NCBI GenBank assembly: GCA_963729715.1
Contig: CAVSPA010000004.1
Span: 96,001 to 160,000 of the forward strand
DNA from: an uncultured delta proteobacterium
GTDB taxonomy: Bacteria; Desulfobacterota; Syntrophia; Syntrophales; UBA2185
Length of the DNA stretch: 64,000 bases
Direction: 5' to 3'
Numbering within the stretch: position 1 is the stretch's first letter; each line of letters opens with the position of its first letter. The notes under the pieces are model-generated. The model was not told the origin of the DNA. It searched no databases and saw nothing but the letters and a program-made list of their open reading frames with translations. Both the position numbers and the translations under genes were made by a program. Of the stretch, positions 13,073-28,802 are shown one piece after another.

Positions 13073-13144
13073 ATTCTTACTGTGGGCATATTACGTGTTG
13101 CATCTCGTTCCTGGAATCTTAGTACATCATTTCATTATTAAGGT

Positions 13145-13244
13145 GTCATATCGACCGAAGGGAGATGTCTTTTAGTTTTACCTTCATATTAAGATTTCTC
13201 GCTGCCCCTTCGCGATGCTCAGGGCTTCGGCTCACCGAAATGAC
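13145..13244. repeat. Short palindromic (REP/RPE-like) element
   Basis: Ends are GTCATATCGACCGAAGGGAGA and CGAAATGAC; same family as 15789-15812 and 20607-20632. Confidence 0.75.
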
Positions 13245-13261
13245 AATGATAGTATTGTGGG

Positions 13262-14098
13262 TTAGATGATATCGGCGAATCGCCGTTCCATTCGTGTGAA
13301 ATAAACAATCCCCATGATAAACAACGCAATGCTCACCGCTACTGAAATAACGAGGTCGCTCCAGAGGATGGGCGTGTTGAGAAGTGAAGATCGAAAGGCT
13401 GTGATCAGCCCGGCCATGGGGTTAAGGTTAATCAGCCATCGCCAACGCTCAGGAACGATGCTTGAAGGATAAATTACCGGTGTTGCGAAGAGCCAGAACT
13501 GGACAAGAAATGGAATGACGTATCGGAAATCCCGGTAGGCAACATTCAGTGCGGAAAGAATCATTCCAATTCCAAGGGTTGCTATAATGACTCCGAGCAT
13601 CAAAAGTGGAAGTAAGAAAAGACTCCACCCTGGATATATTCCGTAATAAAACATCATCACAATAAGAATAATAAAGGCGACAAAAAAATCGAGTAATCCG
13701 GATCCGAGGGATGCTGCCGGTATAATTATTCTCGGGAAATATACTTTTGATATTAAGTTGCTGCTTGCCAACACACTATTTCCCGCATTGCTGATCCCGT
13801 TACTGAAGAACTGCCAGGGTAGAAGAGCCGTGTAAACAAATATGGGGTAGGGAATATTATCCGATGGAATCTTTGCCAGCATGCCGAAGAAGATAGTAAA
13901 TACCACCATGCTCATGAACGGCTGCAGAATTGCCCATAACCCACCTAACACAGTCTGTTTGTAACGGACCTTTATATCGCGGATTGTTAAAAAATGTAAC
14001 AACTCGCGGTATCGCCACAGTTCCTTCCATTGCAGGGAAGACCAGAATTTTCTGGGTTCTATAATTGTGATGTCGGATTGATTATTTCCCATAGTCAT
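13262..14098 (-). CDS. wzm: Polysaccharide ABC exporter permease
   Basis: RDIKVRYKQTVLG, LISKVYFPR, LNPMAGLITAFR; about six TM segments; adjacent to wzt. Confidence 0.93.
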   Translation of the reverse strand: MTMGNNQSDITIIEPRKFWSSLQWKELWRYRELLHFLTIRDIKVRYKQTVLGGLWAILQPFMSMVVFTIFFGMLAKIPSDNIPYPIFVYTALLPWQFFSNGISNAGNSVLASSNLISKVYFPRIIIPAASLGSGLLDFFVAFIILIVMMFYYGIYPGWSLFLLPLLMLGVIIATLGIGMILSALNVAYRDFRYVIPFLVQFWLFATPVIYPSSIVPERWRWLINLNPMAGLITAFRSSLLNTPILWSDLVISVAVSIALFIMGIVYFTRMERRFADII

Positions 14099-14119: not shown

Positions 14120-15526
14120 CTAACTGAGGGATTCATTTGCGACAACATTGTCTGCGGCAACCTCTATTGATGGAATCATGATAATCATGGCCGTCAAGAA
14201 CCAGAAAGGTTCCATGATACGGACGATAATGAAAGTATTAGTGCCGATGCCGTGGGTGACCATGGCAACAAATCCTGCAAGATAACCGAGCGAAAGACCG
14301 CTAAAAAGCGGGTCTGCGGTCCCCCTGTAGGTATGCAATGCATTCATATAGATGGAAAGAAGAAGAATGAAGAAAGTGAGAAATCCCAGGAGTCCTGTCT
14401 CGGCGAGCACCCGTGGATATTGCGCATCCAGAAAACGGTATCCCGTAATGCCATAGCCAAGTATCGGCTGACTGATAAAATCTTTTTCAAGAGCATCTTT
14501 CCAAGACTTAAGCCTGGCGGAAGTTGAGGTGTCAAGCCTTGTATTGCCGACGGTGATCTGTCCGGCTTCTCGCGGCTGAGTAAAAGTAAAAGATACCCTT
14601 TCTATAACACTTTTTGGCAAGATAAATGAGGATGCGAGAAAAATAATGATTAATGCGACAATAATGGGCCACTTTCTCTTACTAAAATAAAGCAGTGTCA
14701 TGACCATGGGAATAAGTGAAACCCAGGAGGCTCTGGAAAGTGTTGCGGCAAGGGAAATAAGGATTAAAAAGAAGAGGGTGCCCAAAAATATTTTTTGTTT
14801 TTTGGAGCGGCCATAGCCTAGTAAAAGACCCAGGACGATGGAGAGCATAAGAACAAGATAGCCCCCAAGCGTATTTGGTTCGCCTTCCGGGCCTTCAAAT
14901 GGTGCAGAGACGCGTCCACCGGCCGGTATTTGATAGATAGCAACTATGCAAATGACAAAGCAAACAAGGAGGATGGTAAACAGGAACCGCTCAATTTGTT
15001 TTTTCTCCTTGAGATGGTTTACGGCAATGAAGTATATGATAAAGTATTCAAAGTATTTCAAAAGAAAGAAGAATCCCGTGAGTCCTTTTACTCTTCCCAT
15101 CATATATCCAATGAGTGTTGAAATCAGGCAGACTATGAAATAGTATGTAATAGGTCCGTTTAGGGGCGTTCTGAGAAAGAGCCCTAATTCTTTCCTAATA
15201 GCTGTTCTCAGAAACCAGCTCAGTCCGATTATGACCAGGAGAAAGTCGTCCATGCGTAAGGTTAGCCCGCGTCCGCGGCCGGGCAATTCTGTCGGTTCTC
15301 CGATTATAAACTGCGGTCCGAGGAGCATGGAAACGATCAGGATATAGAGGGCGATTTCTGTATTGATAAAACTCACGATACCGATGATAACAGCGGCGAT
15401 TACCGCAAAGGCAAGGCCGGTTGACGCCTTCGCAATTAACAGCCCTCCCGCCATCGTTATTAGGAAGATCGTTATGAGGAATAATACGGTCTTTGGATCG
15501 ATAGCTGCTTGTGTGAGTCTATTCAT
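14120..15526 (-). CDS. O-antigen ligase/polymerase (Wzy_C) family protein
   Basis: About 12 TM segments; RVSAPF..EPNTLGGYL, TLSRASW, periplasmic loop SARLKSW...PILGYG...LAETGLLG. Confidence 0.82.
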   Translation of the reverse strand: MNRLTQAAIDPKTVLFLITIFLITMAGGLLIAKASTGLAFAVIAAVIIGIVSFINTEIALYILIVSMLLGPQFIIGEPTELPGRGRGLTLRMDDFLLVIIGLSWFLRTAIRKELGLFLRTPLNGPITYYFIVCLISTLIGYMMGRVKGLTGFFFLLKYFEYFIIYFIAVNHLKEKKQIERFLFTILLVCFVICIVAIYQIPAGGRVSAPFEGPEGEPNTLGGYLVLMLSIVLGLLLGYGRSKKQKIFLGTLFFLILISLAATLSRASWVSLIPMVMTLLYFSKRKWPIIVALIIIFLASSFILPKSVIERVSFTFTQPREAGQITVGNTRLDTSTSARLKSWKDALEKDFISQPILGYGITGYRFLDAQYPRVLAETGLLGFLTFFILLLSIYMNALHTYRGTADPLFSGLSLGYLAGFVAMVTHGIGTNTFIIVRIMEPFWFLTAMIIMIPSIEVAADNVVANESLS

Positions 15527-15569
15527 GTCGGTGGAATCTGATTGTTTGGTGTTTGATAGTCAAAGAACT

Positions 15570-15997
15570 GGATTCCCGCGTGCGCGGGAATGACACGGGT
15601 GGATGGATTCCCGCCGGAGCCTGCCCTCGAATGTATCAGTCGGGGGCGGGAATGACATTGGCGGATGTATTCGCGCTTACGACTGTGTGTAGTGAGCCTT
15701 CTTTGTCATTCCGGTGAACCGAAGGCCTGAACATGGTGAAGGGGCATGTGAGGAATCTTAAAGATCCCTCTCTTCGCTCTGGACAAAAATTTCTCCCTTC
15801 GGTCGAAATGACAGAAGGGGGGACGGCATGACAGACTTTTCTTTCTTGTCATTTCGAGTGCAGCGAGAAATCTTTTTCTCCTTCTCACCCCCTGGATGAA
15901 AGGGGGTCGGGTGGATTTTTACCCACTATCAGAAATCCCCTGTAGCCCCCTTTGTCAAAGGGGGCAGGAAGTAATGACAGAAGGGGGTCGAAATGAC
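15570..15997. repeat. Cluster of tandem palindromic REP-like elements, at least three families
   Basis: ATTCCC-N8-GGGAAT at 15572-15591; 52-nt GGATTCCCGC...GGGAATGAC unit at 15605-15656; GTCATTTCGA-family units at 15789-15812, 15848-15873 and 15987-15997; CCCCCT..AGGGGG hairpins at 15888-15906 and 15946-15964. Confidence 0.85.
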
Positions 15998-16014
15998 ATA
16001 GTCGAAACCGGTCT

Positions 16015-16203
16015 TTATTTCTTTCCCTCAGTGGCTCCTTTTTCTTGTTCATATACGCCTCTATCCGCGGAGTTATAGAATGTTTCAATAATAACAGAAA
16101 TGCTGCCGGTAAATGCGCTGAGTACAAGAGAAACGACTGCTATTACGAGCAGCCAGAAGAAAGTCCTTCTTCTTGTGAGGAAATCTCTCGCACGTCGCTT
16201 CAT
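16015..16203 (-). CDS. Small single-pass membrane protein (hypothetical, 62 aa)
   Basis: Basic N-terminus, one hydrophobic helix, charged tail; same orientation as the operon; weak purine-rich RBS. Confidence 0.5.
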   Translation of the reverse strand: MKRRARDFLTRRRTFFWLLVIAVVSLVLSAFTGSISVIIETFYNSADRGVYEQEKGATEGKK

Positions 16204-16303
16204 TAGTTTCTCTTCTCGATCGGCGCGTCACTCACGGTGGTCGTTTGTTTCTGTGGGTATCGGGTGCGTATTTGTTCCGCGGCGTGAAAACTGAGAAGTG
16301 GAA

Positions 16304-19303
16304 TTAATTCTTCATTGTTCCATCAACAGGGAATAGCCGGGGCGCGTATACATAACCAAGCGTTCTCTTCAAATCGCGCTTTTTCTCTTTAACGTTGAAT
16401 ACCGCGTACCAGTCATCATCAAGGAAGTCCGCCTTGACCCTCTGTCCCGGTTGAAGCTGACTTCTTATCCGGGAGTCGATTGAACGGTCTGCCCTGACGT
16501 TGGTCTTGTCTTTCGCATACAGGATAACGCCCCAGTCCTTGTTATCGGCCGTCTTGGGAAGCGCCGCCTGCATGGGTATCGACTCCTTGGGAGGCGCTAA
16601 TTGTAAGGGTGTTGCCGGTGGCTGGCTGCTCTCAGCTACAGGTTTCTTTTCTTCTATGGATATTGGCTTTTCTTGAGGTTTTGTTTGCGTCGCACTTGCC
16701 GGCTGCTGCGTGTTCTCTTGAGAAGTTTTCTTTTCCTCACTGACAGGTTTTGGGGATTCACCCCAGGGCAAAATATTTTTTACATCGTATTGAATAACGC
16801 GGGTCTGAAACAGGATGCCGAGAATCAGGAATAAAAGAGCAAATAAGAAAATTACGATTTTCAATCCTGAAATTTTCGCTTCAGTTCTTTCTGGCGCTGG
16901 CTTCTGTGCCTCATCATGCTGCGTCGGTTTCGTTTCAACTTCGACCGCGGGCGCAGGTACAGCCATGGGTTCAGGTACGGGCGCAGCTACCGGTGCGGGT
17001 GCAGCTACAGAGGCAGGAGCGGGGGCAGCGGTAGGAGCAGGCTCTTCCTGCTTGACAGCCACTTTGGATACAATTGATTTGAGATAATCCGTTATCGTTT
17101 GAGGCAGCGCAGCGATCTTTTCTGCGAGCGATGGCTTTCGCAGTGTCTTATCACCGTAGTAGTAATAATACTTCTTGTCACGGTAAGCAAAATCAGGGCT
17201 GATATCCGCTTTTAAACCGTTGAGGACAACACCAAAAATTTTCGCACCCACATGGTCAAGCTGTGCCTTGGCCCGCTTGAGGGCGCCTCTGGCAATTTTT
17301 CCCACCTGATATACAATGATTGCGCCGTCTGCGACGGAACTCCATATCGATGCCTCGGTAGCGGCCAATACGGGAGGTGCATCTATCAGTATAATGTCAT
17401 ATTCCGAAGAGGCCTGCTTGATAAGTTCAGGCACGAGCTTTGAGTTGACGAGCTCGGCGGGATTGGGGGCCGCCGAGCCGCCGGTGATTATGTGGAGATT
17501 GTCCATACCGGGGGTCAGCATAATCTCATCCATGCTCATCTTGCCCGTTATAAAATCTGTGATTGTCCTGACAACACTCCTCCATTCATAGTTGCCTAAA
17601 ATTACATCGGCCAGTCCGGGCACAGGTTCGATGCCAAACAGCTTAGCTATGACGGCCCTCCTGAGGTCTCCTTCAATGAGGAGCACCTTGCTGCCGCCCT
17701 GAGCCATGGTTATGGCAAGATTGACGGCTACGGTAGTCTTGCCTTCCTCGGGTGAAGAACTCGTGAAAACTACCGACTTTATGCTCTTATCGAGATTCAG
17801 AAAATTAAGGTTTGTCCTGAGGGCCCTGTAATTTTCCGCCGAGGTTGATGAAGGCAGGAAGTGCGATATGAGCCTATTCGTTTTCTTTATAGTATCGTCA
17901 TCTGGTGTTTTAGAGTATTTGTCCTGAAGAGTCGCCTTGAGTTCATCATGGTTGACCTGCGGTATAATCCCCAGGACTCTTACGCCCAGAAAGTCTTCCA
18001 CTTCTTCGATGGCCTCGAATGATGTATCGAAGGTTTCCATGATGAACGCGAAGACAATGCCCATAATCAGTCCGATAATCAATCCGATAATTGTATGGGA
18101 AGTAACCTTGGGCGGATTGACAGGTGTTGTGGGTTCAAGGGCCGGCCTTACGACCTTTACCTCTTCTATCTTTTCCGCCTCTTGAATCAATGCCTCCTGA
18201 TACTTCTTTTGCAGCAGGGAATACACTTCCCTGTTAACGCCCGCCTCCCTCTCCAGTCTGACCAGTTCCAGACCTTTTTCCGGAAGCTTCCGGAGCTGCT
18301 CGTCCGTAGCGCCGATCTGCTGCTTTAAACTCCTGATGTTTGATTCCAGATACCTTTTCTGCGAGGACAATTGCGACCGCATGCTCGTGATTATTTCATG
18401 GGACTGATTCTTGATTTCGTGAATCTGAGGGAAGGCTTCTGTATATGTAAGAAGAAGGGTGTCCCTCTCGAGCATGAGCTGAACTAATTTGTCATTGAGG
18501 TTCTTATAGATCGGCGTTGCTTCCTCAAAATAGAAAGAGCTTTTTGATGTGAGAGGTTTCTCTTCGGCTGTCGCAAGGGCTTGTTCCACCGCACTGACCT
18601 TCTGAAGTGTTGACGTGTCAAGATCGTATTGGGCCTGGAGTTTGGATGATTGGGCGAGTGAGGCCGTGGACTGCGCGTCAATGGATATCAGTTTGCTGTT
18701 CTCTCTGTAATCCCGCACCTGATCTTCTGATTTGGCGACTTTCTCCCTCACGATGTTGAGCTGATTTTCTATAAATGTCTTGGCCTCGAATGTCCTCTTG
18801 TTGATATCGACCAGATGCTCTTCTTTATAGACCTGAGCGATCGTGTTGGCGAAACGTTGCGCAAACTTGGGGTCTTCAGATGTCACGTTTATGGTGATAA
18901 TATCGGTATTGCCTTCTTGTTCCGTTGTGACGTTAGCCTTAAGATCCAATATAACCCTGAGATATTCGCTATTGCTGCGTATCTGTTCGGAAGTAAGATT
19001 GGCCGGTATCAAATTGAGCTTTTTGGCAACTGACTCCAAGATAATGTAGCTCCTTATCACGGAAGCCTGCGTCTCCAGGTAATTGGTGGAAGACCACGGA
19101 AAAGTTTGTGAGTAGAGGCCGGTGAGTGAGCCGGTCTTTTCAATCTTGATGCTGGCGCTTGTTTTATATATGGGGAGAGGCTGTCCCAATAGGGCCCAGA
19201 CAAGACTGAAAAATGCCATCGACGCCGCTGTAAAGAGGACAATGAACTTCCGCTTTCTGACGGTGCGCCAGTAATCTCTCAGATTAAGATCATATTGGGC
19301 CAT
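16304..19303 (-). CDS. wzc: Polysaccharide co-polymerase/BY-kinase with extra C-terminal TM and SH3b-like domain
   Basis: Wzz-type N-terminus DLNLRDYW, coiled coil, AENYRALRTNL, SSSPEEGKTT, LLIEGDLRR, ILIDAPP, tyrosine cluster KKYYYYYG. Start taken as ATG 19303. Confidence 0.9.
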   Translation of the reverse strand: MAQYDLNLRDYWRTVRKRKFIVLFTAASMAFFSLVWALLGQPLPIYKTSASIKIEKTGSLTGLYSQTFPWSSTNYLETQASVIRSYIILESVAKKLNLIPANLTSEQIRSNSEYLRVILDLKANVTTEQEGNTDIITINVTSEDPKFAQRFANTIAQVYKEEHLVDINKRTFEAKTFIENQLNIVREKVAKSEDQVRDYRENSKLISIDAQSTASLAQSSKLQAQYDLDTSTLQKVSAVEQALATAEEKPLTSKSSFYFEEATPIYKNLNDKLVQLMLERDTLLLTYTEAFPQIHEIKNQSHEIITSMRSQLSSQKRYLESNIRSLKQQIGATDEQLRKLPEKGLELVRLEREAGVNREVYSLLQKKYQEALIQEAEKIEEVKVVRPALEPTTPVNPPKVTSHTIIGLIIGLIMGIVFAFIMETFDTSFEAIEEVEDFLGVRVLGIIPQVNHDELKATLQDKYSKTPDDDTIKKTNRLISHFLPSSTSAENYRALRTNLNFLNLDKSIKSVVFTSSSPEEGKTTVAVNLAITMAQGGSKVLLIEGDLRRAVIAKLFGIEPVPGLADVILGNYEWRSVVRTITDFITGKMSMDEIMLTPGMDNLHIITGGSAAPNPAELVNSKLVPELIKQASSEYDIILIDAPPVLAATEASIWSSVADGAIIVYQVGKIARGALKRAKAQLDHVGAKIFGVVLNGLKADISPDFAYRDKKYYYYYGDKTLRKPSLAEKIAALPQTITDYLKSIVSKVAVKQEEPAPTAAPAPASVAAPAPVAAPVPEPMAVPAPAVEVETKPTQHDEAQKPAPERTEAKISGLKIVIFLFALLFLILGILFQTRVIQYDVKNILPWGESPKPVSEEKKTSQENTQQPASATQTKPQEKPISIEEKKPVAESSQPPATPLQLAPPKESIPMQAALPKTADNKDWGVILYAKDKTNVRADRSIDSRIRSQLQPGQRVKADFLDDDWYAVFNVKEKKRDLKRTLGYVYAPRLFPVDGTMKN

Positions 19304-19317
19304 TGCGCGTGATTCTC

Positions 19318-20508
19318 CTAAAACTGCAGAGCGGAAGGGTTTCTTAACCACTGATCCCTGAGGGGGGCAGGATATTGATACAAGTACTGCAAAAGAGGTG
19401 TCGTGTTGATGATGAATTCATTGATATCGCCTATAACCCTTCTCGGCACGTAAACAAGATCACCGTCTTTAAGCTTTATATTCTGGGACAGGTCCCCTTG
19501 CTTCAGAATTTGATCCAGGTTGGCGGATAGGATAATCGGCTTCCCTCCGCGCTCCTTGTATTCCCTTATTATCTTTATATCTGAATTTATTGCTATCAGG
19601 GTGTAACTCCCGGCATCAGCCATAGCTGCCAGGAGGTCAGGCGCATCCTTCAGCCTGTATATACCCGGCCTGTTGACCTCGCCGAAGACATACACCCTTT
19701 CACCGTAAAAGGGCAGTTCCGGAACGGTGACTATGTCGCCATCGTCTATGATTACATTTTGGGAAACGTCCCCTTTGAACATGGCATTATAAAGATTGAC
19801 CACGTACCTCTTACCCTTTCGGAGTATTTCCACATTTCTGAGATCAGCATTTCCCGGGCTAACGCCGGTGATACCAATGTCCTTGCCTGTTATCGGGCCG
19901 CCGGCAGACACGATGAGATCAAGAATCGTGGTCTTTCCAGTAAGAGGGTACTTTCCGGGACCGGATGTCCCCGTCGAAAGGACGTTGATCTGGCCGAAGA
20001 GCAGGGCTGTCTTACTTTTGTAATCTTTTACGATAACTTCAATTCGAGGATTCCTGATGTATTGTTTTAGTTGATTCGTCAGTATTTCTCTGACCTCGTT
20101 GACGGTGTGACCTGCAACGGGGATGTCATCACCGAACAAATAGGAGATCTTGCCCTCCTGTCTGACCACGACCGTGTAAGTATTCTGTTTGAAGCCTTCT
20201 TCGGTGCGGGCCGTTGTAATTGTGTATGGGATCCAGTAGTTGATCGTGAGGATATCACCCGGCCCTATAAGATATTCAGGCACGCCATGCCTTAGTGTAA
20301 AGACGCTGTTTTCCGTGACCTGGCTCATCTTCACGATTTCTTCCATTTCCTTCTGTTCAGCTAGGCGCTGCGCAGGCGTCACAACCCCGGATGTTTCAGA
20401 AAAAGTCTTGACAGGTATGCCGCGGGCCTCAAATGTGCAGGCAGATAAAAGCAGAGTTGCGAAGCACGAAATATATGCGAGGAGTTTGATTTTACCTATG
20501 TATAACAT
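19318..20508 (-). CDS. wza: Polysaccharide export lipoprotein (Poly_export + SLBB domains)
   Basis: Lipobox LLSAC, EYLIGPGDILTI, YIRNPRIEV, VYVFGEVNRPG, LKDGDLVYVP. Confidence 0.88.
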   Translation of the reverse strand: MLYIGKIKLLAYISCFATLLLSACTFEARGIPVKTFSETSGVVTPAQRLAEQKEMEEIVKMSQVTENSVFTLRHGVPEYLIGPGDILTINYWIPYTITTARTEEGFKQNTYTVVVRQEGKISYLFGDDIPVAGHTVNEVREILTNQLKQYIRNPRIEVIVKDYKSKTALLFGQINVLSTGTSGPGKYPLTGKTTILDLIVSAGGPITGKDIGITGVSPGNADLRNVEILRKGKRYVVNLYNAMFKGDVSQNVIIDDGDIVTVPELPFYGERVYVFGEVNRPGIYRLKDAPDLLAAMADAGSYTLIAINSDIKIIREYKERGGKPIILSANLDQILKQGDLSQNIKLKDGDLVYVPRRVIGDINEFIINTTPLLQYLYQYPAPLRDQWLRNPSALQF

Positions 20509-20687: not shown

Positions 20688-22130
20688 TCAAGGCCTTTTT
20701 AATTTTTTTTCAGGTGACGGTAAAAAGCTGAAAATATGGGAAACGATCTCCCGTACACGGGCTGTATAGTATGATTTCAGGGTTACACCGTCCCTGACAC
20801 AAAGTCTTTGAAGAAGTATTTGGCGAGGCGGGAACAAAGTCCTGAATAAGAATTTGATCTTATCGGAGAGTGTTCTATTCATGGCCAGGTAAATAAAATA
20901 GCTGCTGCCCCGGATGCGGCGGTTGGTAGTCTGGAGTCTCAGGAAGAATCTTTCACCGAGAGATAAATCCGGCGGCGTCAGTTTCCTCGGGCTTTCTTCA
21001 GGTATAAACGCTCTTGCATAGGCCTTAACGATGGAGAGGCTGAGATAGACCAATCGGTCCAGATTAAAACGGCGGCTTTCTTCGACAAGTAAATCCCAAT
21101 CAATATTTTTTTCATAGGCTTTAAGGGCGTAGGATATATCCGTTATGAGTATGAGGCGATCGAAGGAGTGGCCTATCCTGAGGGCGTGTTCGCAGAGATA
21201 GATGATAAGGTGTTCGGGGCATAACATATATACGTCGGCATCTGCCACCCTCGCGGGAACCGCCTTTTCCCATATGCGCCCGATATCGACATGTTTGGCA
21301 AACATCGTTGCTGGCACTGAACTGTTTACTATGTGCCAGTGAACATGAAGATTTAAGGGGGAGCCATTTTCTTTTCGGTATTCGAGGCTGGCAAGATAGC
21401 CTTCCGGATTGTTTATGGCCCTCGCAACGGAACTGTCTCTTGCGATATATCCCTGAGAGGACAAGAGCTCATCGACATCATAGAGGTCAGTTTTCTTGAC
21501 CAGAATATCGATGTCTGACATTCCCCTCATCGCGATGGCGGGATAGATGTGTTCCGCAAGGGCTATGCCTTTAAGAACAATGCAGAGGATCCCGGATTCC
21601 TTAAGAAGGGTGAGGATACTTTTCAACTCACCGATGATGGAAAGGTTTCTTCTTAGATTGTTGTAATACTGTTCGGATAGCGCAGCTCTGACTGCCGGGG
21701 GCACGAGATGTTCCGCTTTGTTATTTTTTAAATTGTGAAATATTGTTTCGACAACGCCCTCCTGCCTCATCTTCACAACAATATAGTCCCAGTCGTACTC
21801 CGTGCTATCCTTTGCATACAAAGAGAGAGATTGATTTTTGGAATCCAACTTCTGTAACCTTTGCACAACTCCTCTATTTGTCATTCCGGGCTTGACTCGG
21901 AAATTGGAGCATACTTCTTGATAATACTGGATTCCCGCTGGAGCCGGTCCTCGAATGTCCTTATCGGGGACGGGAATGACAAAATTGCTGGTCTTAAGCA
22001 GTTCTGAAAAGGTCTCCTTCTGTGAGTCCTTATTAGGTAAGTCAAAAAGGAGACTTAGGATTAATTTGTCGCAATCTTGGCAGTTGATGGCAAAGCTCCG
22101 CTCTCTAAAGTCACGGCTTCTCGTAAACAT
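20688..22130 (-). CDS. Nucleotidyltransferase family protein (NTP_transf_5-like) with in-frame palindromic insertion
   Basis: IVLKGIALA..IYP...RGMSDIDILV, NLHVHW, EHLIIYLCEH, RLILITDI. Confidence 0.85.
   Translation of the reverse strand: MFTRSRDFRERSFAINCQDCDKLILSLLFDLPNKDSQKETFSELLKTSNFVIPVPDKDIRGPAPAGIQYYQEVCSNFRVKPGMTNRGVVQRLQKLDSKNQSLSLYAKDSTEYDWDYIVVKMRQEGVVETIFHNLKNNKAEHLVPPAVRAALSEQYYNNLRRNLSIIGELKSILTLLKESGILCIVLKGIALAEHIYPAIAMRGMSDIDILVKKTDLYDVDELLSSQGYIARDSSVARAINNPEGYLASLEYRKENGSPLNLHVHWHIVNSSVPATMFAKHVDIGRIWEKAVPARVADADVYMLCPEHLIIYLCEHALRIGHSFDRLILITDISYALKAYEKNIDWDLLVEESRRFNLDRLVYLSLSIVKAYARAFIPEESPRKLTPPDLSLGERFFLRLQTTNRRIRGSSYFIYLAMNRTLSDKIKFLFRTLFPPRQILLQRLCVRDGVTLKSYYTARVREIVSHIFSFLPSPEKKLKRP
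21855..22016. mobile_element. 162-bp RPE-like palindromic element inserted in frame in a CDS
   Basis: Outer imperfect inverted repeats (12/16), inner TTTGTCATTCC/GGAATGACAAA, and the same 52-nt unit (21929-21980) found in two intergenic regions. Confidence 0.78.
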
Positions 22131-22263: not shown

Positions 22264-22572
22264 ATGGAAGAGTTTTTGAAGGATATCGAACTTTTGTCAA
22301 GGAATACGGATTGTATTTTCAGGGAAGAGGAAGACGGGGCCTTTCTGTTCGATCCGGAAAGCGGGAATCTTAAATTTATCAATAGCATGGGCGTTAATAT
22401 CTATCAGCTCTGCGACGGTAAAATGACTGTGGGAGACATCACATCATTGGTAAGCGAAAATTATAAAGACATTTCGAGCAAGAAGATCGAGGACGATATA
22501 AAGGTTTTTTTGCAAGAGCTTGTAAAAATGGAGTTTTTAAAAAGAGAAGAAACCGGTCATGACGGGAAATAA
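22264..22572 (+). CDS. PqqD-family RiPP recognition element (ScmD-like)
   Basis: FREEEDGAFLFDP...FINSMGVNIYQLCDG..TVGDI...DDIKVFLQELVKMEFL, the typical PqqD winged-helix pattern; overlaps the downstream rSAM gene. Confidence 0.88.
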   Translation: MEEFLKDIELLSRNTDCIFREEEDGAFLFDPESGNLKFINSMGVNIYQLCDGKMTVGDITSLVSENYKDISSKKIEDDIKVFLQELVKMEFLKREETGHDGK

Positions 22573-23641
22573 TGCAGCGTATTCGTTAAACTCCATTTAT
22601 CTTTATCTTACGGACAGATGTAATCTGAGGTGCAGGCACTGCTGGATTGAACCTCTATATTATGAAGGCCGCAAAGACGACAGCACTGAATTTGACCTGA
22701 AATTTCTCAAAAAGGCGATTGAAGATGCGAAAGAGATTGGCCTTAACCGTGTTAAGCTGACAGGCGGCGAGCCTTTTTTGAGAAGAGACATACTTGATAT
22801 CATCGCGTATCTTCATGCTCAAAACATTACAGTGGATATAGAGACAAACGGCACCCTCATAGACAAGGAGATTTGCGCAGTTCTAAAAGCTAATGGCGTT
22901 AATCAGGTATCCGTCAGCCTTGACAGCATGACGGCAGAGCAGCATGAAACATTCCGCGGGGTCAAAGGTTGTTACCATGATGCCTTGAAAGGGCTTTCAC
23001 TGCTCACAGAAAGTGGCATAAACACTCAGCTCATAATGACCCTCTATAAGGAAAATATATCGGAGATTGAAAGGCTGGTTGATCTTTCTTCCCGGATGGG
23101 TGTCGGTTCTGTTAAGATAAACCCTGTCATGCCCACGGGGCGAGGCAAGAAATTTTTTGAAAAAGAAGAAAATGTTGAGTTCGGCGATCTAATAAAGATT
23201 GACAGATGGATTGAAGAAGAATTAGTGTCAAAATACAAAATTGATATACACTTTGATATCCCCATAGGTCTTAAGTCGCTTAAATGCATAAGAACGAGAC
23301 AATTGTTCGAGTGCAATATTGTAAATATAATCGGCATACTCTCCGACGGCACAATTTCCCTGTGCGGCATCGGCCAGACGGAGACTGCTCTTAATATGGG
23401 CAACATTGCGGTAGACGATATACGTGAAGTGTGGGCAAGTAATCCCATCCTGCAGAAATTGAGAAAGGACATACCGCGCAATTTAGAGGGCATATGCGGC
23501 CGCTGCATATTCAAGTTCAGATGCCGGGGGGCGTGCAGGGCCTGTGCATACGGCTTAACAGGAAGTCTTAATAGTCCCTTCTTTGTCTGCCGTGAGGCAT
23601 ATGAAAAGGGACTGTTTCTGGAATCCAGGATGATCAATTAA
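22559..23641 (+). CDS. scmF: Radical SAM/SPASM peptide maturase (SynChlorMet ScmF-like)
   Basis: IYLYLTDRCNLRCRHCWIEP, TGGEP, ETNGT; SPASM cysteines EC...DGTISLC...CGRCIFKFRCRGACRAC...C. The subfamily name is recalled from memory, not from an HMM search. Confidence 0.85.
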   Translation: MTGNNAAYSLNSIYLYLTDRCNLRCRHCWIEPLYYEGRKDDSTEFDLKFLKKAIEDAKEIGLNRVKLTGGEPFLRRDILDIIAYLHAQNITVDIETNGTLIDKEICAVLKANGVNQVSVSLDSMTAEQHETFRGVKGCYHDALKGLSLLTESGINTQLIMTLYKENISEIERLVDLSSRMGVGSVKINPVMPTGRGKKFFEKEENVEFGDLIKIDRWIEEELVSKYKIDIHFDIPIGLKSLKCIRTRQLFECNIVNIIGILSDGTISLCGIGQTETALNMGNIAVDDIREVWASNPILQKLRKDIPRNLEGICGRCIFKFRCRGACRACAYGLTGSLNSPFFVCREAYEKGLFLESRMIN

Positions 23642-23660: not shown

Positions 23661-24698
23661 ATGACTCGCAGCTATGACTTGATTAAAGATAATAATAAGG
23701 GAGAGGGAGACGGGCCTCTTCGCCTGAGTGACATTGAAAACCTTAAGTCCCAGGAAGGCAAATCATACGAGACTCCGGAAGAGCGTTCAGCGCAGGATGA
23801 AAAAGAGGTTGATAATGCCGAGAGACTCTATGCGGGCTTCCAGAAATACATGCGCGATGTCAGGGAGGAGGTTAAGACCAATCAACCCATTGAGCTTGAG
23901 GCGGCATTCTCGCTGATTGAGCAGCTCACGAAATCAAGAAGTATGATGGAAAGAGTTTATCAGTTAACCAATACCTTTTACCATGGTAAGGACTACTATA
24001 TCTCTCATCCCGTAAATACAATGATATATGCCGTAAAGGTCGGGCTGCGGATGGGATATTCCCGTGACAAACTCAAAGAACTCGCTATGGCAGCACTTCT
24101 TCACGATGTAGGAATGTTTATGATTCCTGAAAATATCATAACCAAGGAAGGGGCATTGACCGAATCTGAATTGGCTCTGATAAAGAGACATCCTGAGCTC
24201 GGGAAAAATCTCCTGTTCAAGTTTAAGGATCAGTTACCCTGGCTTGCCCGCGCCGTTCATGAACATCAGGAAAGAGAAAATGGCAAGGGATATCCGAGGG
24301 GAATTAAAGGAGATGACATTGCGGAGTACGCGAAGATTATAGGCATATGTGATTCGTATGAGGCGATGACGCACAACCGTCCCCACAAGAAGGCTATCAT
24401 GCAATTTACCTCAGTGAGGGAATTGATAGAAACAAAGGACCTTCTGTTTCCCACAAAGATACTTAGAGCATTTCTTGAGGAGTTATCCCTGTATCCGATA
24501 GGAAGTTGCGTAAAATTGAATAACAATGCAATTGGAAGGGTCATTGACACCAATAAAGACCAGCCCATGAAACCGATAATCAAACTCCTTTTTGACGGCC
24601 ACGGGAATGCAGTGACTGACGAAAGGATCATAGACTTGAAAGAGAATACTGTATTGAATATTCTCGGCGGCGTGTCAGATGACGAATTGCCAGGCTAA
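23661..24698 (+). CDS. HD-GYP domain phosphohydrolase (c-di-GMP phosphodiesterase-like)
   Basis: LLHDVGM, IKRHP, HEHQERENGKGYPRG, ICDSYEAMTHNRPH; C-terminal YPIGSCVKLN. Confidence 0.88.
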   Translation: MTRSYDLIKDNNKGEGDGPLRLSDIENLKSQEGKSYETPEERSAQDEKEVDNAERLYAGFQKYMRDVREEVKTNQPIELEAAFSLIEQLTKSRSMMERVYQLTNTFYHGKDYYISHPVNTMIYAVKVGLRMGYSRDKLKELAMAALLHDVGMFMIPENIITKEGALTESELALIKRHPELGKNLLFKFKDQLPWLARAVHEHQERENGKGYPRGIKGDDIAEYAKIIGICDSYEAMTHNRPHKKAIMQFTSVRELIETKDLLFPTKILRAFLEELSLYPIGSCVKLNNNAIGRVIDTNKDQPMKPIIKLLFDGHGNAVTDERIIDLKENTVLNILGGVSDDELPG

Positions 24699-25598
24699 AT
24701 GGAAGAACTGATTCTCTCCATAGCGGACCTTGCCATTGCCGTTCGTGCGGAGAAACACATAAAAGTTTTATTAGAACCTTTAACTAAACTCTTCAGCGGA
24801 TTTCTAAATGATGCCGGTAAACCAGCCGCGTTCCTGAATTTAACTTACGATCGTCTCCGTACATATCCGAACTTTAAAGACATGACTGTCAATGTGCTTG
24901 CGGGAAACTGCGGGGAAAGCAACGAATTGATTAATCAGGTGGGGAAAGTTTACCCGATATCAAGAGATTCTATAGTCGTCGGGTATTTAAATGGATGCCT
25001 CGCGTATAATCCGTCATCCAGTGAGGCCTGTCTGCTTCTCTTCAGGTCGCATGATCAGAACAATTTCACGGCAACTCTTCATAAGATGCTGTTCATCTTT
25101 ATTTCTTTCGTCCTGGGTGAAAGAAACAGATTCATGGTGCACGGTGCAGGAATAGGGGAGAAACAGGGTGGGGGAGGCTTTCTCTTCCTCGGCGATTCAG
25201 GTGCGGGAAAAACAACCGTTGCGGGTTTTGCCGGTGTGGATGCAGTGCTTTCGGATGACGCTCCCGTTATCGGCAAAGAAGACGGCGTTTACAACATATA
25301 TTCATCACCCTTCAGCCAAGTAAATTTGTTTGACGAAAGATCAAGCGATTACTTCCGGAAGAAGGTTCAATTAAGGAAGCTTTTGTTCTTAAATAAGGCA
25401 GATGAGATTGCGGTAACGGCGCGGCAACGACATTCCGCCCTGACGGAAATATTAACATCGCACGTGCATTCGTTTGATCTGATGGACCGGGACTTGAGAA
25501 TAGGTGCTTTTAACTTTTGCCATGACCTATGTTACAGCATACCTGCGTATGACCTCTATTTTCAGGAGAATAATAAATTCTGGGATGCTTTGAACTAA
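24699..25598 (+). CDS. HPr kinase-like P-loop protein (ScmC-like)
   Basis: MVHGAGI, FLFLGDSGAGKTT Walker A and VLSDD, the HprK-type motif order; SSPF. Confidence 0.8.
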   Translation: MEELILSIADLAIAVRAEKHIKVLLEPLTKLFSGFLNDAGKPAAFLNLTYDRLRTYPNFKDMTVNVLAGNCGESNELINQVGKVYPISRDSIVVGYLNGCLAYNPSSSEACLLLFRSHDQNNFTATLHKMLFIFISFVLGERNRFMVHGAGIGEKQGGGGFLFLGDSGAGKTTVAGFAGVDAVLSDDAPVIGKEDGVYNIYSSPFSQVNLFDERSSDYFRKKVQLRKLLFLNKADEIAVTARQRHSALTEILTSHVHSFDLMDRDLRIGAFNFCHDLCYSIPAYDLYFQENNKFWDALN

Positions 25599-25625: not shown

Positions 25626-25994
25626 TTAGCCGGCGCCTCCCGCCTGACATCCTCCCGCAGCGGCGCTGCCAGCCGTACACGTGCCTCCGGCGACACTGCC
25701 AGAGTTGCAACCACTGTTTCCGGCGGCGCTGCCGGATTGACATTGACCACCGGCAGCAGTACTGCCGGCATTACATTTGCTTGACGTAGGAGCGCTGCCT
25801 GTATTGCAATTGCTTGATGCGACACTGCCGGCTTGACATTGCCCGCCGGAGGCAGTGGCTCCCGAGTTGCACTGCTGTTGAGGAGATCCTCCTGCCTGGC
25901 ATTGGCTTGGCCCTTGAGCGTGAGCGACCCCGCCGCCAAGATCAAGAATTTGAGGAGGTTCATAAGGGAGCTTGAATTTGGATTTCACGTGCAT
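25626..25994 (-). CDS. Cys/Gly/Ser-rich RiPP precursor peptide with lasso-type leader and nine CxxG repeats
   Basis: Leader YEPPQILDLG; Cys at 32, 42, 53, 63, 74, 85, 96, 106 and 116, each in C-[QNT]-[AST]-G. AGGAGG RBS; its spacing favours a GTG start at 25988. Directly downstream of an rSAM/SPASM gene. Confidence 0.88.
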   Translation of the reverse strand: MHVKSKFKLPYEPPQILDLGGGVAHAQGPSQCQAGGSPQQQCNSGATASGGQCQAGSVASSNCNTGSAPTSSKCNAGSTAAGGQCQSGSAAGNSGCNSGSVAGGTCTAGSAAAGGCQAGGAG

Positions 25995-27114
25995 ATCCCT
26001 CCTGTTTCTTTTGTGACTTCATTACATCTAAGCTGTATGGGTATCCATTGCCTTTGTAGATCCTGTAGCAGGACATGGGATCAACCGTAAAAACAGAGCC
26101 AGAGAGCTCATAAGACACAGCAGGACATCCGCCGATACAGAGTGATTTGTATCCGCAGCCGCTGCATTCCTCAATATCGTCCAGGGAAACGGATGCCCTT
26201 CTTCTCATTTTGGAAAAAATGGGCGACGAAGCCCATATTTCCTGAAAATCCGTTTCCCCGATGTGGCCGGCCTTGAAATCCCACAACCTGTCACATGGAA
26301 CAACCCAGCCGTCGGGCCTGACGGTACACTTCTGGATTCCCCCTCCGCAGCCAAACAGCCCGTTCGTACATCCCGGATTGTCCCGGTCCCCTATCTTCTG
26401 AAGCTTCTCGAAGCCTTTAAAAAAGTTTCCCATGTCGAGGATCGTCCCGATTACAAAATTACCGTACGTATTTCTCAAGCGCTCTAATTTGTGCGTTAAC
26501 GCCCTTCTCTGAGAATTGGAAAGAGTGAGGTTGGGAAGATGACATACCGCGTTGCCGAGCGGCAGTAGTTCATTAAATTTCACGGCCGTCAAACCGAGGC
26601 TCTTCCCGAGAATAATAATATCTTCTATGTCCTGATAATTGTTCTTCGTGACCGTGGTGTAAGTGGAGACGTGTCTGTTATGCTTTAAAAGATTTTCGAT
26701 GCCGCGAATCGTTCGATCAAAACTGCCATTTCCCCTTTGCTTGTCATGCACGGCGGGTGATGACCCGTCGAGACTGACGACGACGCTGAACAGTTTCTTT
26801 AGCTCGGAAATCCGCCGCGATGCTTGTTCGTCGATAAGGGTGGCGTTTGTATTCAGGCCGTAATGGAAGTGGTGTTTTTCTATTTCATACAAAATGGAAA
26901 AGACATCTTCCCTCATGAAGGGCTCGCCGCCGCTGATCCAGAGTGTAAAAACCTTCAACTCGGCAAGTCTCCTGATAAACTTTATCCATTCGTCTGTCGT
27001 CAGGTCGCTCGTTGCATTGCGCGTCGGATAGACGTTGCAATGCTTGCATGCCAGATTACACTTATTGGTAATGGCGATGAAAACATCTAATGGAGCCGAA
27101 AAACAGTTCTTCAT
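25960..27114 (-). CDS. scmE: Radical SAM/SPASM peptide maturase (SynChlorMet ScmE-like)
   Basis: APLDVFIAITNKCNLACKHC, SGGEP, NTNAT, VSLDG; SPASM GCGGG..C..RPDGWVVPC...CSGCGYKSLCIGGCP...C. The subfamily name is recalled from memory. Confidence 0.85.
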   Translation of the reverse strand: MKNCFSAPLDVFIAITNKCNLACKHCNVYPTRNATSDLTTDEWIKFIRRLAELKVFTLWISGGEPFMREDVFSILYEIEKHHFHYGLNTNATLIDEQASRRISELKKLFSVVVSLDGSSPAVHDKQRGNGSFDRTIRGIENLLKHNRHVSTYTTVTKNNYQDIEDIIILGKSLGLTAVKFNELLPLGNAVCHLPNLTLSNSQRRALTHKLERLRNTYGNFVIGTILDMGNFFKGFEKLQKIGDRDNPGCTNGLFGCGGGIQKCTVRPDGWVVPCDRLWDFKAGHIGETDFQEIWASSPIFSKMRRRASVSLDDIEECSGCGYKSLCIGGCPAVSYELSGSVFTVDPMSCYRIYKGNGYPYSLDVMKSQKKQEGYAREIQIQAPL

Positions 27115-27518
27115 GACGAAATGATCAGCCCCTTTCGCTTAAAGGCCATGAGGGTGAGTACGATGTCCCTTTTCGCGGCATCCTGCCCCACATCAAAACG
27201 ACCGGTAATTTCCTCTACCATATTATCGACACCGTTGGCACCGTTGCACAGGTTCCAGATATCAGCAGCAACAGCGTTTAACTTCAGCGTATCTGAGTTT
27301 TTCCTCGTATCCGTAAGGATCGTGTAGCTATCTTCTTTTCTCAGCGAGACGTCAGGATGTCTGGCAGGACTGGCGCTCAGGATTTCCTTCACTTCCATTG
27401 AATTCCAGGTGTATCGCAGATAGTCGACCATGCCAAATGACCGCACGGAGCCAGTAGCCGGCAGGAGAATACCTGCGCCAAATAATACGGACATAAAATT
27501 TCTTCTCGATGTATCCAC
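27111..27518 (-). CDS. PqqD-family RRE protein with N-terminal twin-arginine signal-like peptide
   Basis: AAGGAGG 8 nt before GTG; SRRNFM followed by a hydrophobic stretch; C-terminal LNAVAADIWNLCNG...VEEITGRFDV...RDIVLTLMAFKRKGLI PqqD pattern. Confidence 0.82.
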   Translation of the reverse strand: MDTSRRNFMSVLFGAGILLPATGSVRSFGMVDYLRYTWNSMEVKEILSASPARHPDVSLRKEDSYTILTDTRKNSDTLKLNAVAADIWNLCNGANGVDNMVEEITGRFDVGQDAAKRDIVLTLMAFKRKGLIISS

Positions 27519-27564
27519 GACAGATTCCTCCTTTAAAGATGCGCCCGGACGGCGGCTATTCCGA

Positions 27565-28359
27565 TTATAATGAATCCTTTACCACCTTTTTTACCAAGTC
27601 CGCACTAATGGTCTTTTGTTTTGTGCTGGAGGCAATCAAAAGTGCCAGATCACAGACATTGTTTATCTTCCTCGGCACGCCTTGGGAATACAGGTATATT
27701 TCTTCTATAGAGTCGGGAGGAAATATCCCGTTGGTCAGTCCCGCTCTCTCCATTCTGTAAACTATGTATTTTGCCGTCTCGTCGGCATTGAGTGGATTCA
27801 GATGGAATCTTATGGCGATCCTCTGATCGAGTTGTTTAAATTGCCTTATCAGGTCCTTCAGCTCCGGTTGTCCGATGAGAACGAATGTCATCAGGAACTT
27901 ATCGTTCAACTGAAAGTTCAGGAGCAAGCGAATCTCTTCGAAGGTATCGGTGTGTATGAGCTGTGCCTCATCGATGATGAGCAGAGTGGTCCTGTTTTTC
28001 CTGACATTTTCGAGCAGCCGCGTATTTAATATGGCGAGAAGCTCCGTCTTTGAATTAGTCCTGACATTCAGGCCAATCTGATAGAGCACCTCCTTCAGGA
28101 AGTCCAGCGGCTCGAGCGACGGGTTTGTTATCAATCCGATCTCAAAATCCTTTTCGGGAAGCTGCTGGATGAAAACCCTGCTGAGGAGAGTCTTTCCGCT
28201 TCCTATTTCGCCCGTAAGCAGGGCTGCCCCTTTTCTCCTCTTCACGGCATAGACTAGCCTGGCGAGGGCCTCGACGTGCTCATGTGAGTAGTACATGAAC
28301 TCCGGATCAGGTACATTTTCAAACGGGAATTTCTTGAAGCCCCAGTATTCTAAATACAT
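27565..28359 (-). CDS. ExeA/GspA-like AAA ATPase (EPS/PEP-CTERM-associated type)
   Basis: MYLEYWGFKKFPF..PDP, GEIGSGKT, IIDEAQ, LIGQPEL, QLDQRI, GVPRKINNVCD. Confidence 0.88.
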   Translation of the reverse strand: MYLEYWGFKKFPFENVPDPEFMYYSHEHVEALARLVYAVKRRKGAALLTGEIGSGKTLLSRVFIQQLPEKDFEIGLITNPSLEPLDFLKEVLYQIGLNVRTNSKTELLAILNTRLLENVRKNRTTLLIIDEAQLIHTDTFEEIRLLLNFQLNDKFLMTFVLIGQPELKDLIRQFKQLDQRIAIRFHLNPLNADETAKYIVYRMERAGLTNGIFPPDSIEEIYLYSQGVPRKINNVCDLALLIASSTKQKTISADLVKKVVKDSL

Positions 28360-28802
28360 TTCATCAACCCATCAATTGCCATATAGATCTCTGAAAAACA
28401 GAGCCTGTACTGAAATATTGAAAGTTTGTAGGGATCCTTAATGTCCCCGTATTCTTCATTATAATCCGGAGAAAATGATTTGAGACGATGAATCTTAGCC
28501 TCCGCTTCCGGGTACTTCTCGACGATTATTTTCTTGTGGATACCCTCCATGACGATGATCATATCTGCCTGGGAGACCATGTCTTCCGTCAATAGCTTTG
28601 AATGGTGACCGGCGCCATCGAGACCGTGCTCATCCAGTATTTCAACGGCTTTCGGATCGGCAGGCATGCCATTCATGTCGGTGACGGCGGCAGAGTAAAC
28701 CTCGATACCGGGTTTTTTGTCCTTTTTCAGCCTTTCTATGAGAATCCTTTCCGCCATGAAGCTTCTGACTATATTGGCAGTGCAGACAAATAAAATTTTC
28801 AT
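28350..28802 (-). CDS. wzb: Low-molecular-weight protein-tyrosine phosphatase (Wzb-like)
   Basis: FVCTANIVRS (Cx5R P-loop) and DIKDPY. Confidence 0.85.
   Translation of the reverse strand: MKILFVCTANIVRSFMAERILIERLKKDKKPGIEVYSAAVTDMNGMPADPKAVEILDEHGLDGAGHHSKLLTEDMVSQADMIIVMEGIHKKIIVEKYPEAEAKIHRLKSFSPDYNEEYGDIKDPYKLSIFQYRLCFSEIYMAIDGLMKCI

Follow-up and report, generated by a model that had tools for sequence, protein, structure and literature searches.

A PqqD-type recognition element with a twin-arginine signal, a candidate export adaptor for a SynChlorMet-like peptide

The object of this analysis is a 64,000-nucleotide stretch of DNA (hereafter the window) from an uncultured delta proteobacterium of the Syntrophales (assembly GCA_963729715.1, contig CAVSPA010000004.1, positions 96,001 to 160,000), and in particular its gene at 27111..27518. 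This gene encodes a PqqD-type recognition element (RRE) for peptides that are made by ribosomes and modified after translation (RiPPs), which displays an N-terminal signal of the type used in twin-arginine translocation (Tat) and was named Tat-RRE. It lies in a cassette of the SynChlorMet (Scm) kind next to the gene of a Cys-repeat precursor peptide. The current view places RREs in the cytoplasm as docking domains, and for secretion a RiPP usually depends on an exporter and a leader protease dedicated to it. From the comparison of related cassettes, it appears rather probable that Tat-RRE is a dedicated export adaptor supplying the signal peptide in trans. The preliminary description of the window had proposed such a piggy-back export, and comparative genomics is the line of evidence that supports it: the cargo displays an AxA site, the carrier gene is co-oriented with that of the precursor, the dedicated peptidase and exporter are lost, and counterparts exist in which the signal is carried in cis.

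The Tat-RRE gene and its signal sequence

The gene and the elements of its signal are located as follows.

27111..27518, minus strand: Tat-RRE, a PqqD/RRE protein of 135 residues with an N-terminal twin-arginine signal and a GTG start
27527..27533, minus strand: Shine-Dalgarno sequence AAGGAGG, 8 nucleotides ahead of the GTG
27492..27509, minus strand: twin-arginine motif S-R-R-N-F-M, residues 4-9
27444..27500, minus strand: Gly-rich, uncharged hydrophobic region (h-region), residues 7-25, with R26 and a possible V-R-S|F site behind it

The plus-strand frame over this interval is full of stops. The minus strand is the coding strand, with the GTG start codon at 27518-27516. The protein consists of the signal (residues 1-26), an extra helix (residues 28-48) and the RRE fold (residues 51-134). 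The strong ribosome-binding site (RBS) described earlier was recovered as the AAGGAGG sequence, and the announced S-R-R-x-F-hydrophobic motif is indeed followed by an h-region, a run of 19 uncharged residues with a best 12-residue Kyte-Doolittle mean of 2.32. The fusion to a PqqD domain was confirmed by a match to PF05402 in residues 73-132 (44.1 bits, gathering cut-off 23.4). The whole genome gave only two PqqD matches, the other one being the signal-less RRE at 22264-22572 that had already been recognized. A simple Tat-pattern rule, distinct from the published predictors, flagged 18 of the 6575 raw open reading frames (ORFs) of at least 100 residues in the genome; Tat-RRE was among them, and the others were mostly ordinary-looking Tat substrates.

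Tat motifs are described as Z-R-R-x-hydrophobic-hydrophobic near the N-terminus (PMC13673990). The cleavage site of Tat-RRE, called plausible in the preliminary description, exists as a candidate. It is weak, however, since the best candidate is V-R-S|F and not AxA. Among 43 orthologous loci, a strict AxA 15-31 residues past the motif was present in two and a looser small-x-small site in 36. The signal of Tat-RRE may stay uncleaved as a membrane anchor; class III Tat signals are such uncleaved anchors (PMC13673990), with which the rarity of a strict AxA in the carriers is compatible. A PetC-anchor match was weak (E 0.068) and counted for no more than a hint. In the genome, a TatA/B-family gene adjoins that of TatC, three more TatA/B-family genes are present, and LepB is encoded once. 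TatC was also found in 33 of the 34 other genomes with a Tat-RRE, and the genome lacking a TatC match is 78% complete.

Conservation and distribution of the signal

The Tat-RRE family was gathered by a profile search of 1.84 billion representatives and by genome searches. A second, phylum-wide search returned nearly the same genomes as the first one and added one locus (G171). The family proteins are 126-151 residues long. Fragments (P0011, P0014) and entries starting at Met9 were left out of the alignments A2/A3. Some loci stem from repeated retrieval of one record (L001/L119, L003/L095/L186, L004/L118), thus the loci counts of 37 and 43 used here overstate the number of distinct genomes.

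The twin-arginine motif, whose presence in orthologues had been raised as a check, is well kept. All 34 aligned members display [RK]R-x-[FL], at a mean column identity of 36%. The second Arg never varies. R occupies the first position in 26 members and K in eight, and at the consensus F position 26 have F and eight have L. Lys is tolerated at the first twin-arginine position. Residues 10-50 reach a median majority-residue frequency of only 0.26. In 43 of 43 loci the motif contains an [RK]R pair, is followed by at least 13 uncharged residues and has an in-frame start upstream, at a distance of 4 codons in 36 of them. A start at a downstream Met, which had been considered as well, is not backed by conservation in the family: M9 occurs in seven and M41 in five of the 34 members, and at position 30 Met is not among the six commonest residues. 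The database entries P0001, P0005, P0007 and P0010 begin at Met9 and so lose the motif; for the P0010 sequence, locus L188 shows an upstream GTG start with the motif. As gene callers often place the start at Met9, the arrangement escapes notice in databases. Taken together, the alignments indicate that the Tat signal is under selection, and Tat targeting of Tat-RRE is very probably real.

The arrangement is not rare in its group. A Tat-RRE was found in 32 of the 301 genomes searched in the class and in three further genomes from two other families of the phylum. Family proteins are also named from Latescibacterota and Desulfobacteraceae, and the named close relatives are metagenome-assembled genomes of Syntrophales and Syntrophaceae. 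For the clade with a K-R motif and the distant database proteins, the genomic context comes from G466 alone. The ESM Atlas contains PqqD clusters of 139-147 residues. The long-frame RREs of G140, G333, G381 and G401 were rejected as Tat-RREs; they have no Tat motif and are ordinary RREs with over-long ORF calls. In a tree of 197 RRE domains, the Tat-RREs formed six pure groups, with six further members scattered.

Position 115 is Cys in 47 of 62 Tat-RREs and in five of 135 signal-less RREs, and Ala in the protein of the window. A C91-C115 disulfide was considered as a sign of a periplasmic location and was dropped, given this Ala115 and the mapping of position 115 to the Tyr pocket.

The RRE domain and leader recognition

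The AlphaFold2 model of Tat-RRE, obtained from an alignment of 34 sequences, has a mean predicted local distance difference test score (pLDDT) of 82.9. Residues 1-26 are disordered, residues 28-48 form a helix, and the RRE fold at 51-134 comprises three strands and three helices. The best solved fold matches are the complexes of lasso-peptide B1 proteins with leaders, 6jx3 and 5v1u (Foldseek, 6jx3_B: E 4.5e-5, TMt 0.83). In the RRE LppB, the Pro and Tyr of the leader's YxxP motif are secured by N33 and D70 (PMC13381572). N81 and D118 of Tat-RRE are invariant, and their spacing of 37 residues equals that of LppB N33/D70, on which the mapping is based. L80, V83, I104, F108 and L131 map to other residues of the leader pocket.

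Complex prediction was run with Tat-RRE (residues 27-135) and the precursor (residues 1-45), along with three controls. It gave weak support for the Tat-RRE/leader complex: the score was 0.55 against 0.00 for the best control, with a pass mark that is met by 116 of 157 solved complexes and two of 215 mismatched pairs, passes at a score of 0.60 or lower comprising just 18 of the 157 solved complexes but both mismatches. Contact agreement between the runs was at least 78% and the pLDDT of the partner at least 52. From sequence and model, the Tat-RRE domain still looks like a leader binder, and binding of the leader is considered likely.

The precursor, its cleavage site and its linkage to Tat-RRE

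The features of the precursor are the following.

25626..25994, minus strand: precursor peptide of 122 residues, RBS GGAGGG; TIGR04252 (ScmA) match of 13.4 bits, cut-off 35
25953..25964, minus strand: Y-E-P-P, predicted RRE-binding motif of the leader, residues 11-14
25914..25925, minus strand: A-H-A|Q, predicted signal-peptidase-I-type site at the leader/core junction, residues 24-27

The peptide is composed of a leader of 26 residues and a core of 96 residues, which contains nine Cys at 10-11-residue spacing, 17 Ser and six Thr. YxxP is an RRE-binding leader motif (PMC13381572), and AxA is the motif of type I signal peptidase (PMC13673990). The precursor has no hydrophobic signal region (best window 0.71), and the same holds for the precursors of the Tat-RRE cassettes in general (median best window 0.78). 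In 27 of 29 of these, the leader ends with A-[YHFQ]-A, 15-17 residues from the Tyr and followed by Q, A or D. The exceptions are one V-Y-A (L087:4793) and one precursor without a site, in locus L098. Such a motif was detected in one of 14 signal-less control precursors (L122), with no peptidase seen on a contig that ends 1.6 kb later. A-H-A-Q also follows the h-region of an unrelated Tat-type protein in the same genome (C6:249752).

Gene order is heavily shuffled among the families of Tat-RRE cassettes. Tat-RRE and precursor are nonetheless on the same strand in 26 of 26 loci which hold both (32 loci examined), and at most 350 bp apart in 17 of them. Other RREs are on the strand of the precursor in just 6 of 34 cases. 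Nine of the 32 loci hold three RREs, a Tat-RRE and two signal-less ones, although the count of L104 may include a false RRE; in these nine, Tat-RRE is thus an extra component. In genome G346, Tat-RRE stays beside the precursor, and the radical S-adenosylmethionine (SAM) genes are on another contig.

Some further loci were recorded. In L098:9014-10850 (plus strand), the precursor lacking the AxA segment stands with a carrier that is likewise degenerate, with R-R-N-S-I in place of the motif; this cassette is possibly decaying or re-routed. In L094:37-3094 and L114:3714-6976, Tat-RRE converges on HD-GYP, ScmC-like and DUF2939 genes with no adjacent precursor. An orphan precursor with A-Y-A|Q is located on another contig of G402. 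G466 holds a separate cluster linked to exopolysaccharide (EPS) genes (L175:8931-19362), which contains a nucleotidyltransferase, several unannotated enzymes and a 58-residue peptide with a WxxP leader (17623-17799).

Peptidase and exporter genes in related cassettes

Cassettes with an RRE, a kinase and a radical SAM enzyme served as controls; 14 of the 43 control loci examined are of this type. Clustering of unannotated neighbours revealed one peptidase-like family present in 11 control loci, which matches Peptidase_S24 and TIGR02228, the model for signal peptidase I (SpI) of the archaeal type. The leader peptidase LppS of the system for linear polyphosphorylated peptides (LPP) belongs to the same SpI-like class (PMC13381572). 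A profile was built from ten of the 12 positive control loci and L128; L127, L160 and L087 were found by it. With this profile, the soluble SpI-like peptidase was detected in 12 of the 14 control cassettes against one of 37 Tat-RRE loci. Locus L179 was left out of the former count because it had been fetched for its peptidase match.

At the level of whole genomes, the peptidase was present in six of 35 Tat-RRE genomes (G171, G558, G478, G642 and, weakly, G596 and G530). The match of G171 and G558 belongs with a second, signal-less Scm cassette and an MsbA-like exporter, and that of G478 with a separate cluster of kinase, nucleotidyltransferase and radical SAM genes. In the genome of the window, the profile returned nothing beyond LexA at E 0.04. 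ATP-binding cassette (ABC) exporter genes were found in six of the 14 control cassettes (L125, L134, L139, L141, L146 and L160). Within 3.5 kb of the core genes, no Tat-RRE locus except L087 has such a gene.

The other control cassette without the peptidase is L133, an EPS locus with ATPase, HD-GYP, RRE, kinase, radical SAM, nucleotidyltransferase and Wzc genes. It encodes a precursor-like protein (L133:7896-8225, minus strand) which carries its own Tat motif R-R-E-F-I-K, a Y-x-x-P inside the h-region and S-Y-A|E; its core is rich in Arg, Gly, Glu and Lys, and it has three database relatives. Similarly, L088:2530-3078 (minus strand) encodes a protein of 182 residues with a Tat motif, W-x-x-P and A-H-A|Q, which has no Pfam or NCBIfam match. 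It lies upstream of nucleotidyltransferase, RRE and HprK-like genes, and the contig ends beside the kinase gene. Neither peptidase nor Tat-RRE was found in loci L133 and L088. Along with the other cassettes, these two loci point to three alternating solutions, namely a peptidase with an ABC exporter, a Tat signal on the precursor, or a Tat signal on the RRE.

Three observations on peptidase-bearing loci are added here. L087:2666-17500 holds a Tat-RRE cassette with two precursors (A-Y-A/V-Y-A) and a second, signal-less Scm cassette, a fusion gene and an exporter gene lying between them; this contig is a natural test of leader discrimination. L124, L126, L129, L132, L136 and L138 combine an RRE and an S26-like peptidase with no ScmC-like kinase, several of them beside ORFs of 1060-1120 residues, and by their gene content are other peptide systems with the same peptidase class. 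In L179:8507-10297 (minus strand), a ScmF-like radical SAM ORF runs into an S26-like domain, a putative fusion with an ambiguous stretch nearby.

Proposed export route

The favoured route would comprise four steps. In the cytoplasm, the Cys-repeat precursor would be modified by the radical SAM enzymes, the kinase and the nucleotidyltransferase, for which the signal-less RRE would serve as docking partner. From these enzyme families, one would expect thioether cross-links, phosphorylation and the transfer of nucleotidyl or sugar groups. Tat-RRE would then bind the YEPP leader, as suggested by the conserved pocket residues and the gene linkage. The folded complex, addressed by the motif present in Tat-RRE, would cross the inner membrane through TatABC as a hitchhiker pair. 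At the periplasmic face, the A-H-A|Q site would be cut while the RRE presents the leader, and the core of 96 residues would be freed. The leader protease is probably the housekeeping LepB. The carrier signal, often devoid of a good cleavage site, may remain as an anchor which holds the leader near LepB. A single small gene would thereby do the work for which related cassettes use a soluble SpI-like leader peptidase and an ABC exporter. Co-export of the precursor by Tat-RRE is moderately probable, and chances are about even that co-export is combined with cleavage of the leader by LepB. A more general proposition is likewise given equal weight for and against: an RRE family would act as signal peptide in trans by binding the YxxP leader, taking the cross-linked peptide through Tat, staying as an uncleaved anchor and presenting the leader to the housekeeping LepB. 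One protein of 135 residues and the machinery of the host would then suffice for export and processing of a RiPP, and in evolution this route could be exchanged for a peptidase with an ABC exporter or for a Tat signal on the precursor itself.

Several observations speak against this route. TIGR01409, the hidden Markov model of Tat signals, gave no match to Tat-RRE at E<=1 (it matches three of the 34 family members, best E 0.0083), and the search profiles of the family contain the RR motif, which favours RR-bearing matches. In the leader pocket, the equivalent of LppB F74 is a Thr at position 122 of Tat-RRE and not Phe, and the pass in complex prediction may come from the likeness to solved lasso complexes. 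LepB normally needs the h-region of the substrate itself; the precursor has none, so its cleavage by LepB has to be assumed. The leaders of control precursors end in small residues too (A-M-G, A-L-G, L-A-A), hence the AxA site may be inherited from S26 processing. G466, a 98% complete genome with a Tat-RRE of the K-R type, has no precursor of this family and no radical SAM protein above 33% identity to ScmF, and its nucleotidyltransferase is in a different cluster; no precursor match was obtained in G478, an assembly of short contigs. L087 combines Tat-RRE with an S26-nucleotidyltransferase fusion and an MsbA-like exporter, albeit on a contig with a second, signal-less cassette. The Tat-RRE loci are kin, possibly of one origin (the RRE tree did not settle single versus multiple origins), and the anti-correlation with the peptidase may therefore be a single event. 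If the carrier binds too early, peptide could leave the cytoplasm unmodified, and a mechanism ordering the steps is not evident. Finally, an unlinked exporter or protease elsewhere in the genome is possible.

This last point keeps a place for a receiver in the periplasm. Tat-RRE would be exported or anchored alone, the precursor would leave through an unlinked ABC exporter, and Tat-RRE would catch the leader outside and present it to LepB. Such a receiver accounts equally well for the AxA site, for the loss of the peptidase of the soluble type and for the carrier's poor cleavage site, and it avoids the premature export of unmodified peptide. It is nevertheless considered improbable: six of the 14 control cassettes have an ABC exporter gene and, apart from L087, none is linked to Tat-RRE cassettes. 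In addition, Tat substrates fold in the cytoplasm, where the co-transcribed leader would presumably be available already, and the precursors with a cis signal show that such peptides can themselves be Tat-targeted. Slightly less credit is given to a real Tat signal that serves another task in the periplasm or membrane, for example as scaffold or sensor for the capsule/EPS machinery, the AxA of the precursor being cut by another protease. The Tat-RRE gene often stands behind the ATPase and phosphatase genes of an EPS locus, its neighbours in G466 and G402 are kinase, HD-GYP and DUF2939 genes and no precursor adjoins it, and both the extra helix and the enrichment of Cys115 are unexplained. The leader-pocket residues N81 and D118 are kept, however, and the co-orientation of Tat-RRE is strict for the precursor and not for the other RREs; G402 does possess its A-Y-A|Q precursor on another contig, and in G346 it is the precursor, and not the radical SAM genes, that accompanies Tat-RRE.

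It is also conceivable, yet quite unlikely, that the RR segment is a tether on the cytoplasmic side or a non-exported relic (e.g. captured from a precursor with a cis signal), and that the protein is simply the RRE of the ScmE-like enzyme. In the window, Tat-RRE is translationally coupled to the ScmE-like gene and two RREs stand for two radical SAM enzymes, as in the signal-less cassettes L144 and L087-2. The absent TIGR01409 match and the database entries started at Met9 would fit as well. A relic, however, would not keep the second Arg invariant and restrict R-to-K changes to the first position across 22-58% identity. Moreover, the cassettes with three RREs have two signal-less ones besides Tat-RRE, L188 reveals an upstream GTG and the motif for an entry started at Met9, and the missing peptidase is left unexplained. 

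Export by Tat-RRE in trans, as preferred here, would explain the incomplete look of the Tat-RRE cassettes. If true, an RRE can act as export adaptor, the cargo of Tat hitchhiking includes a peptide that is released and not just enzyme subunits, and signal peptidase I can process a substrate that relies on a second protein to be targeted to the membrane. A leader-addressed Tat carrier could also serve as a tool for moving cross-linked peptides to the periplasm.

Relation to known systems

The cassette is a variant of a catalogued type which is unstudied in the searched literature. The SynChlorMet set (TIGR04248 ScmD, TIGR04249 ScmC, TIGR04250 ScmE, TIGR04251 ScmF, TIGR04252 ScmA) shares with it two radical SAM/SPASM enzymes, a PqqD-type RRE, the kinase-like ScmC and a precursor with CxxG repeats. 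These models are the best NCBIfam matches of the window enzymes, although none of the five window proteins reaches its curated cut-off. L179, a cassette of the canonical Scm type, differs by an S26 domain apparently fused to ScmF, an MsbA-like exporter, a leader ending in A-K-G and the lack of a Tat-RRE.

The LPP system (lppA-K-B-S-D-N; Popov et al., 2026, PMC13381572) has in common with the window a YxxP leader, a discrete RRE, a kinase like HprK, an NTP transferase and a location in capsular polysaccharide loci. In LPP, the RRE presents the leader to an SpI-like enzyme and leader cleavage is RRE-dependent (PMC13381572). The system uses the dedicated SpI-like LppS and the MsbA-like pump LppD, and its listed core set includes no radical SAM enzyme (PMC13381572); the window cassette lacks LppS- and LppD-like genes and its RRE bears the Tat signal. 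The main text of PMC13381572 contains neither 'twin-arginine' nor 'Tat'.

Tat hitchhiking, the export of a signal-less partner in complex with a folded signal-bearing protein, is described for HybO/HybC and PaoABC (PMC4273604). These are subunits of one enzyme (PMC4273604), whereas in the window cassette a dedicated adaptor appears to carry a modified peptide, which is then cut free. Bufferins are also Cys-rich RiPPs which use a general export pathway and signal peptidase instead of a dedicated exporter (PMC11626156). In their case the precursor itself bears the signal, which is of the Sec type, and MNIOs act as the enzymes (PMC11626156); in the window cassette, a Tat signal is on a separate RRE. 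The lasso B1 proteins (TfuB1 6jx3, TbiB1 5v1u) are the closest solved folds, and their YxxP-type leader recognition is also predicted for Tat-RRE. Unlike Tat-RRE, they are cytoplasmic, have no signal peptide and present the leader to the cysteine peptidase B2. Each part of the proposed mechanism has a precedent, and for their combination, an RRE as signal peptide in trans, no published account was found. The literature searched gave no description of an RRE with a Tat signal or of the SynChlorMet cassette, most subscription journals and supplements (e.g. the co-occurrence tables of PMC13381572) being outside the search.

The cassette and its neighbourhood

The remaining genes of the cassette and its surroundings are listed below.

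25960..27114, minus strand: ScmE-like radical SAM/SPASM enzyme, the start of which overlaps the Tat-RRE stop by 4 nucleotides; TIGR04250, 240.9 bits, cut-off 400
22264..22572, plus strand: signal-less RRE (ScmD-like), presumed cytoplasmic partner of the maturases
22559..23641, plus strand: ScmF-like radical SAM/SPASM enzyme; TIGR04251, 347 bits, cut-off 400
23661..24698, plus strand: HD-GYP-type (HD_5) protein, recurrent in Tat-RRE loci
24699..25598, plus strand: ScmC-like P-loop (HprK-like kinase) protein, weak match; TIGR04249, 23.7 bits, cut-off 125
20688..22130, minus strand: NTP_transf_5 nucleotidyltransferase; PF14907, 184 bits
27565..28359, minus strand: ExeA-like AAA ATPase, ending 46 nucleotides before the Tat-RRE start; TIGR03015, 244.7 bits, cut-off 324.5
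28350..28802, minus strand: low-molecular-weight protein tyrosine phosphatase (Wzb-like), at the head of the putative operon
14120..20508, minus strand: EPS genes beside the cassette, i.e. Wza-like (19318-20508), Wzc-like (16304-19351) and O-antigen-ligase-like (14120-15526)

On the minus strand, the order is phosphatase, ExeA-like ATPase, Tat-RRE, ScmE-like radical SAM enzyme and precursor. The genes of the signal-less RRE, the ScmF-like enzyme, the HD-GYP protein and the ScmC-like kinase converge on them from the plus strand. The SynChlorMet gene set is matched by two SPASM radical SAM enzymes, PqqD, a ScmC-like protein and a Cys-repeat peptide. The ScmD model scored 26.9 and 49.8 bits (cut-off 100), under its cut-off like the other models listed. 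Three related Tat-RRE cassettes have a ScmE above the cut-off (553.6, 611.3 and 604.9 bits). TIGR03015, the best match of the ATPase, is the PEP-CTERM system-associated ATPase. A promoter scan of the window was uninformative (8 sites versus 10.7 in shuffles).

No MsbA-like exporter was found at 14000-40000 of the window. The nearest ABC pair (11867-14098) best matches the polysaccharide Wzm/Wzt models, below their cut-offs, in agreement with the earlier remark that the cassette has no visible peptide exporter. C39 peptidase matches in the genome were examined as peptide exporters and rejected. They are stand-alone proteins of 247 and 255 residues (C7:288859-289602 and C7:369272-370039) with a hydrophobic N-terminus and a C39-like domain, unlinked to the cassette.

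The position of the cassette among capsule/EPS genes suggests a cell-envelope function of the product. The HD-GYP protein (23661-24698) and the ExeA-like ATPase with the low-molecular-weight phosphatase (27565-28802) accompany both Tat-RRE and peptidase-type cassettes in EPS loci, an association which suggests a link to cyclic di-GMP and capsule control.

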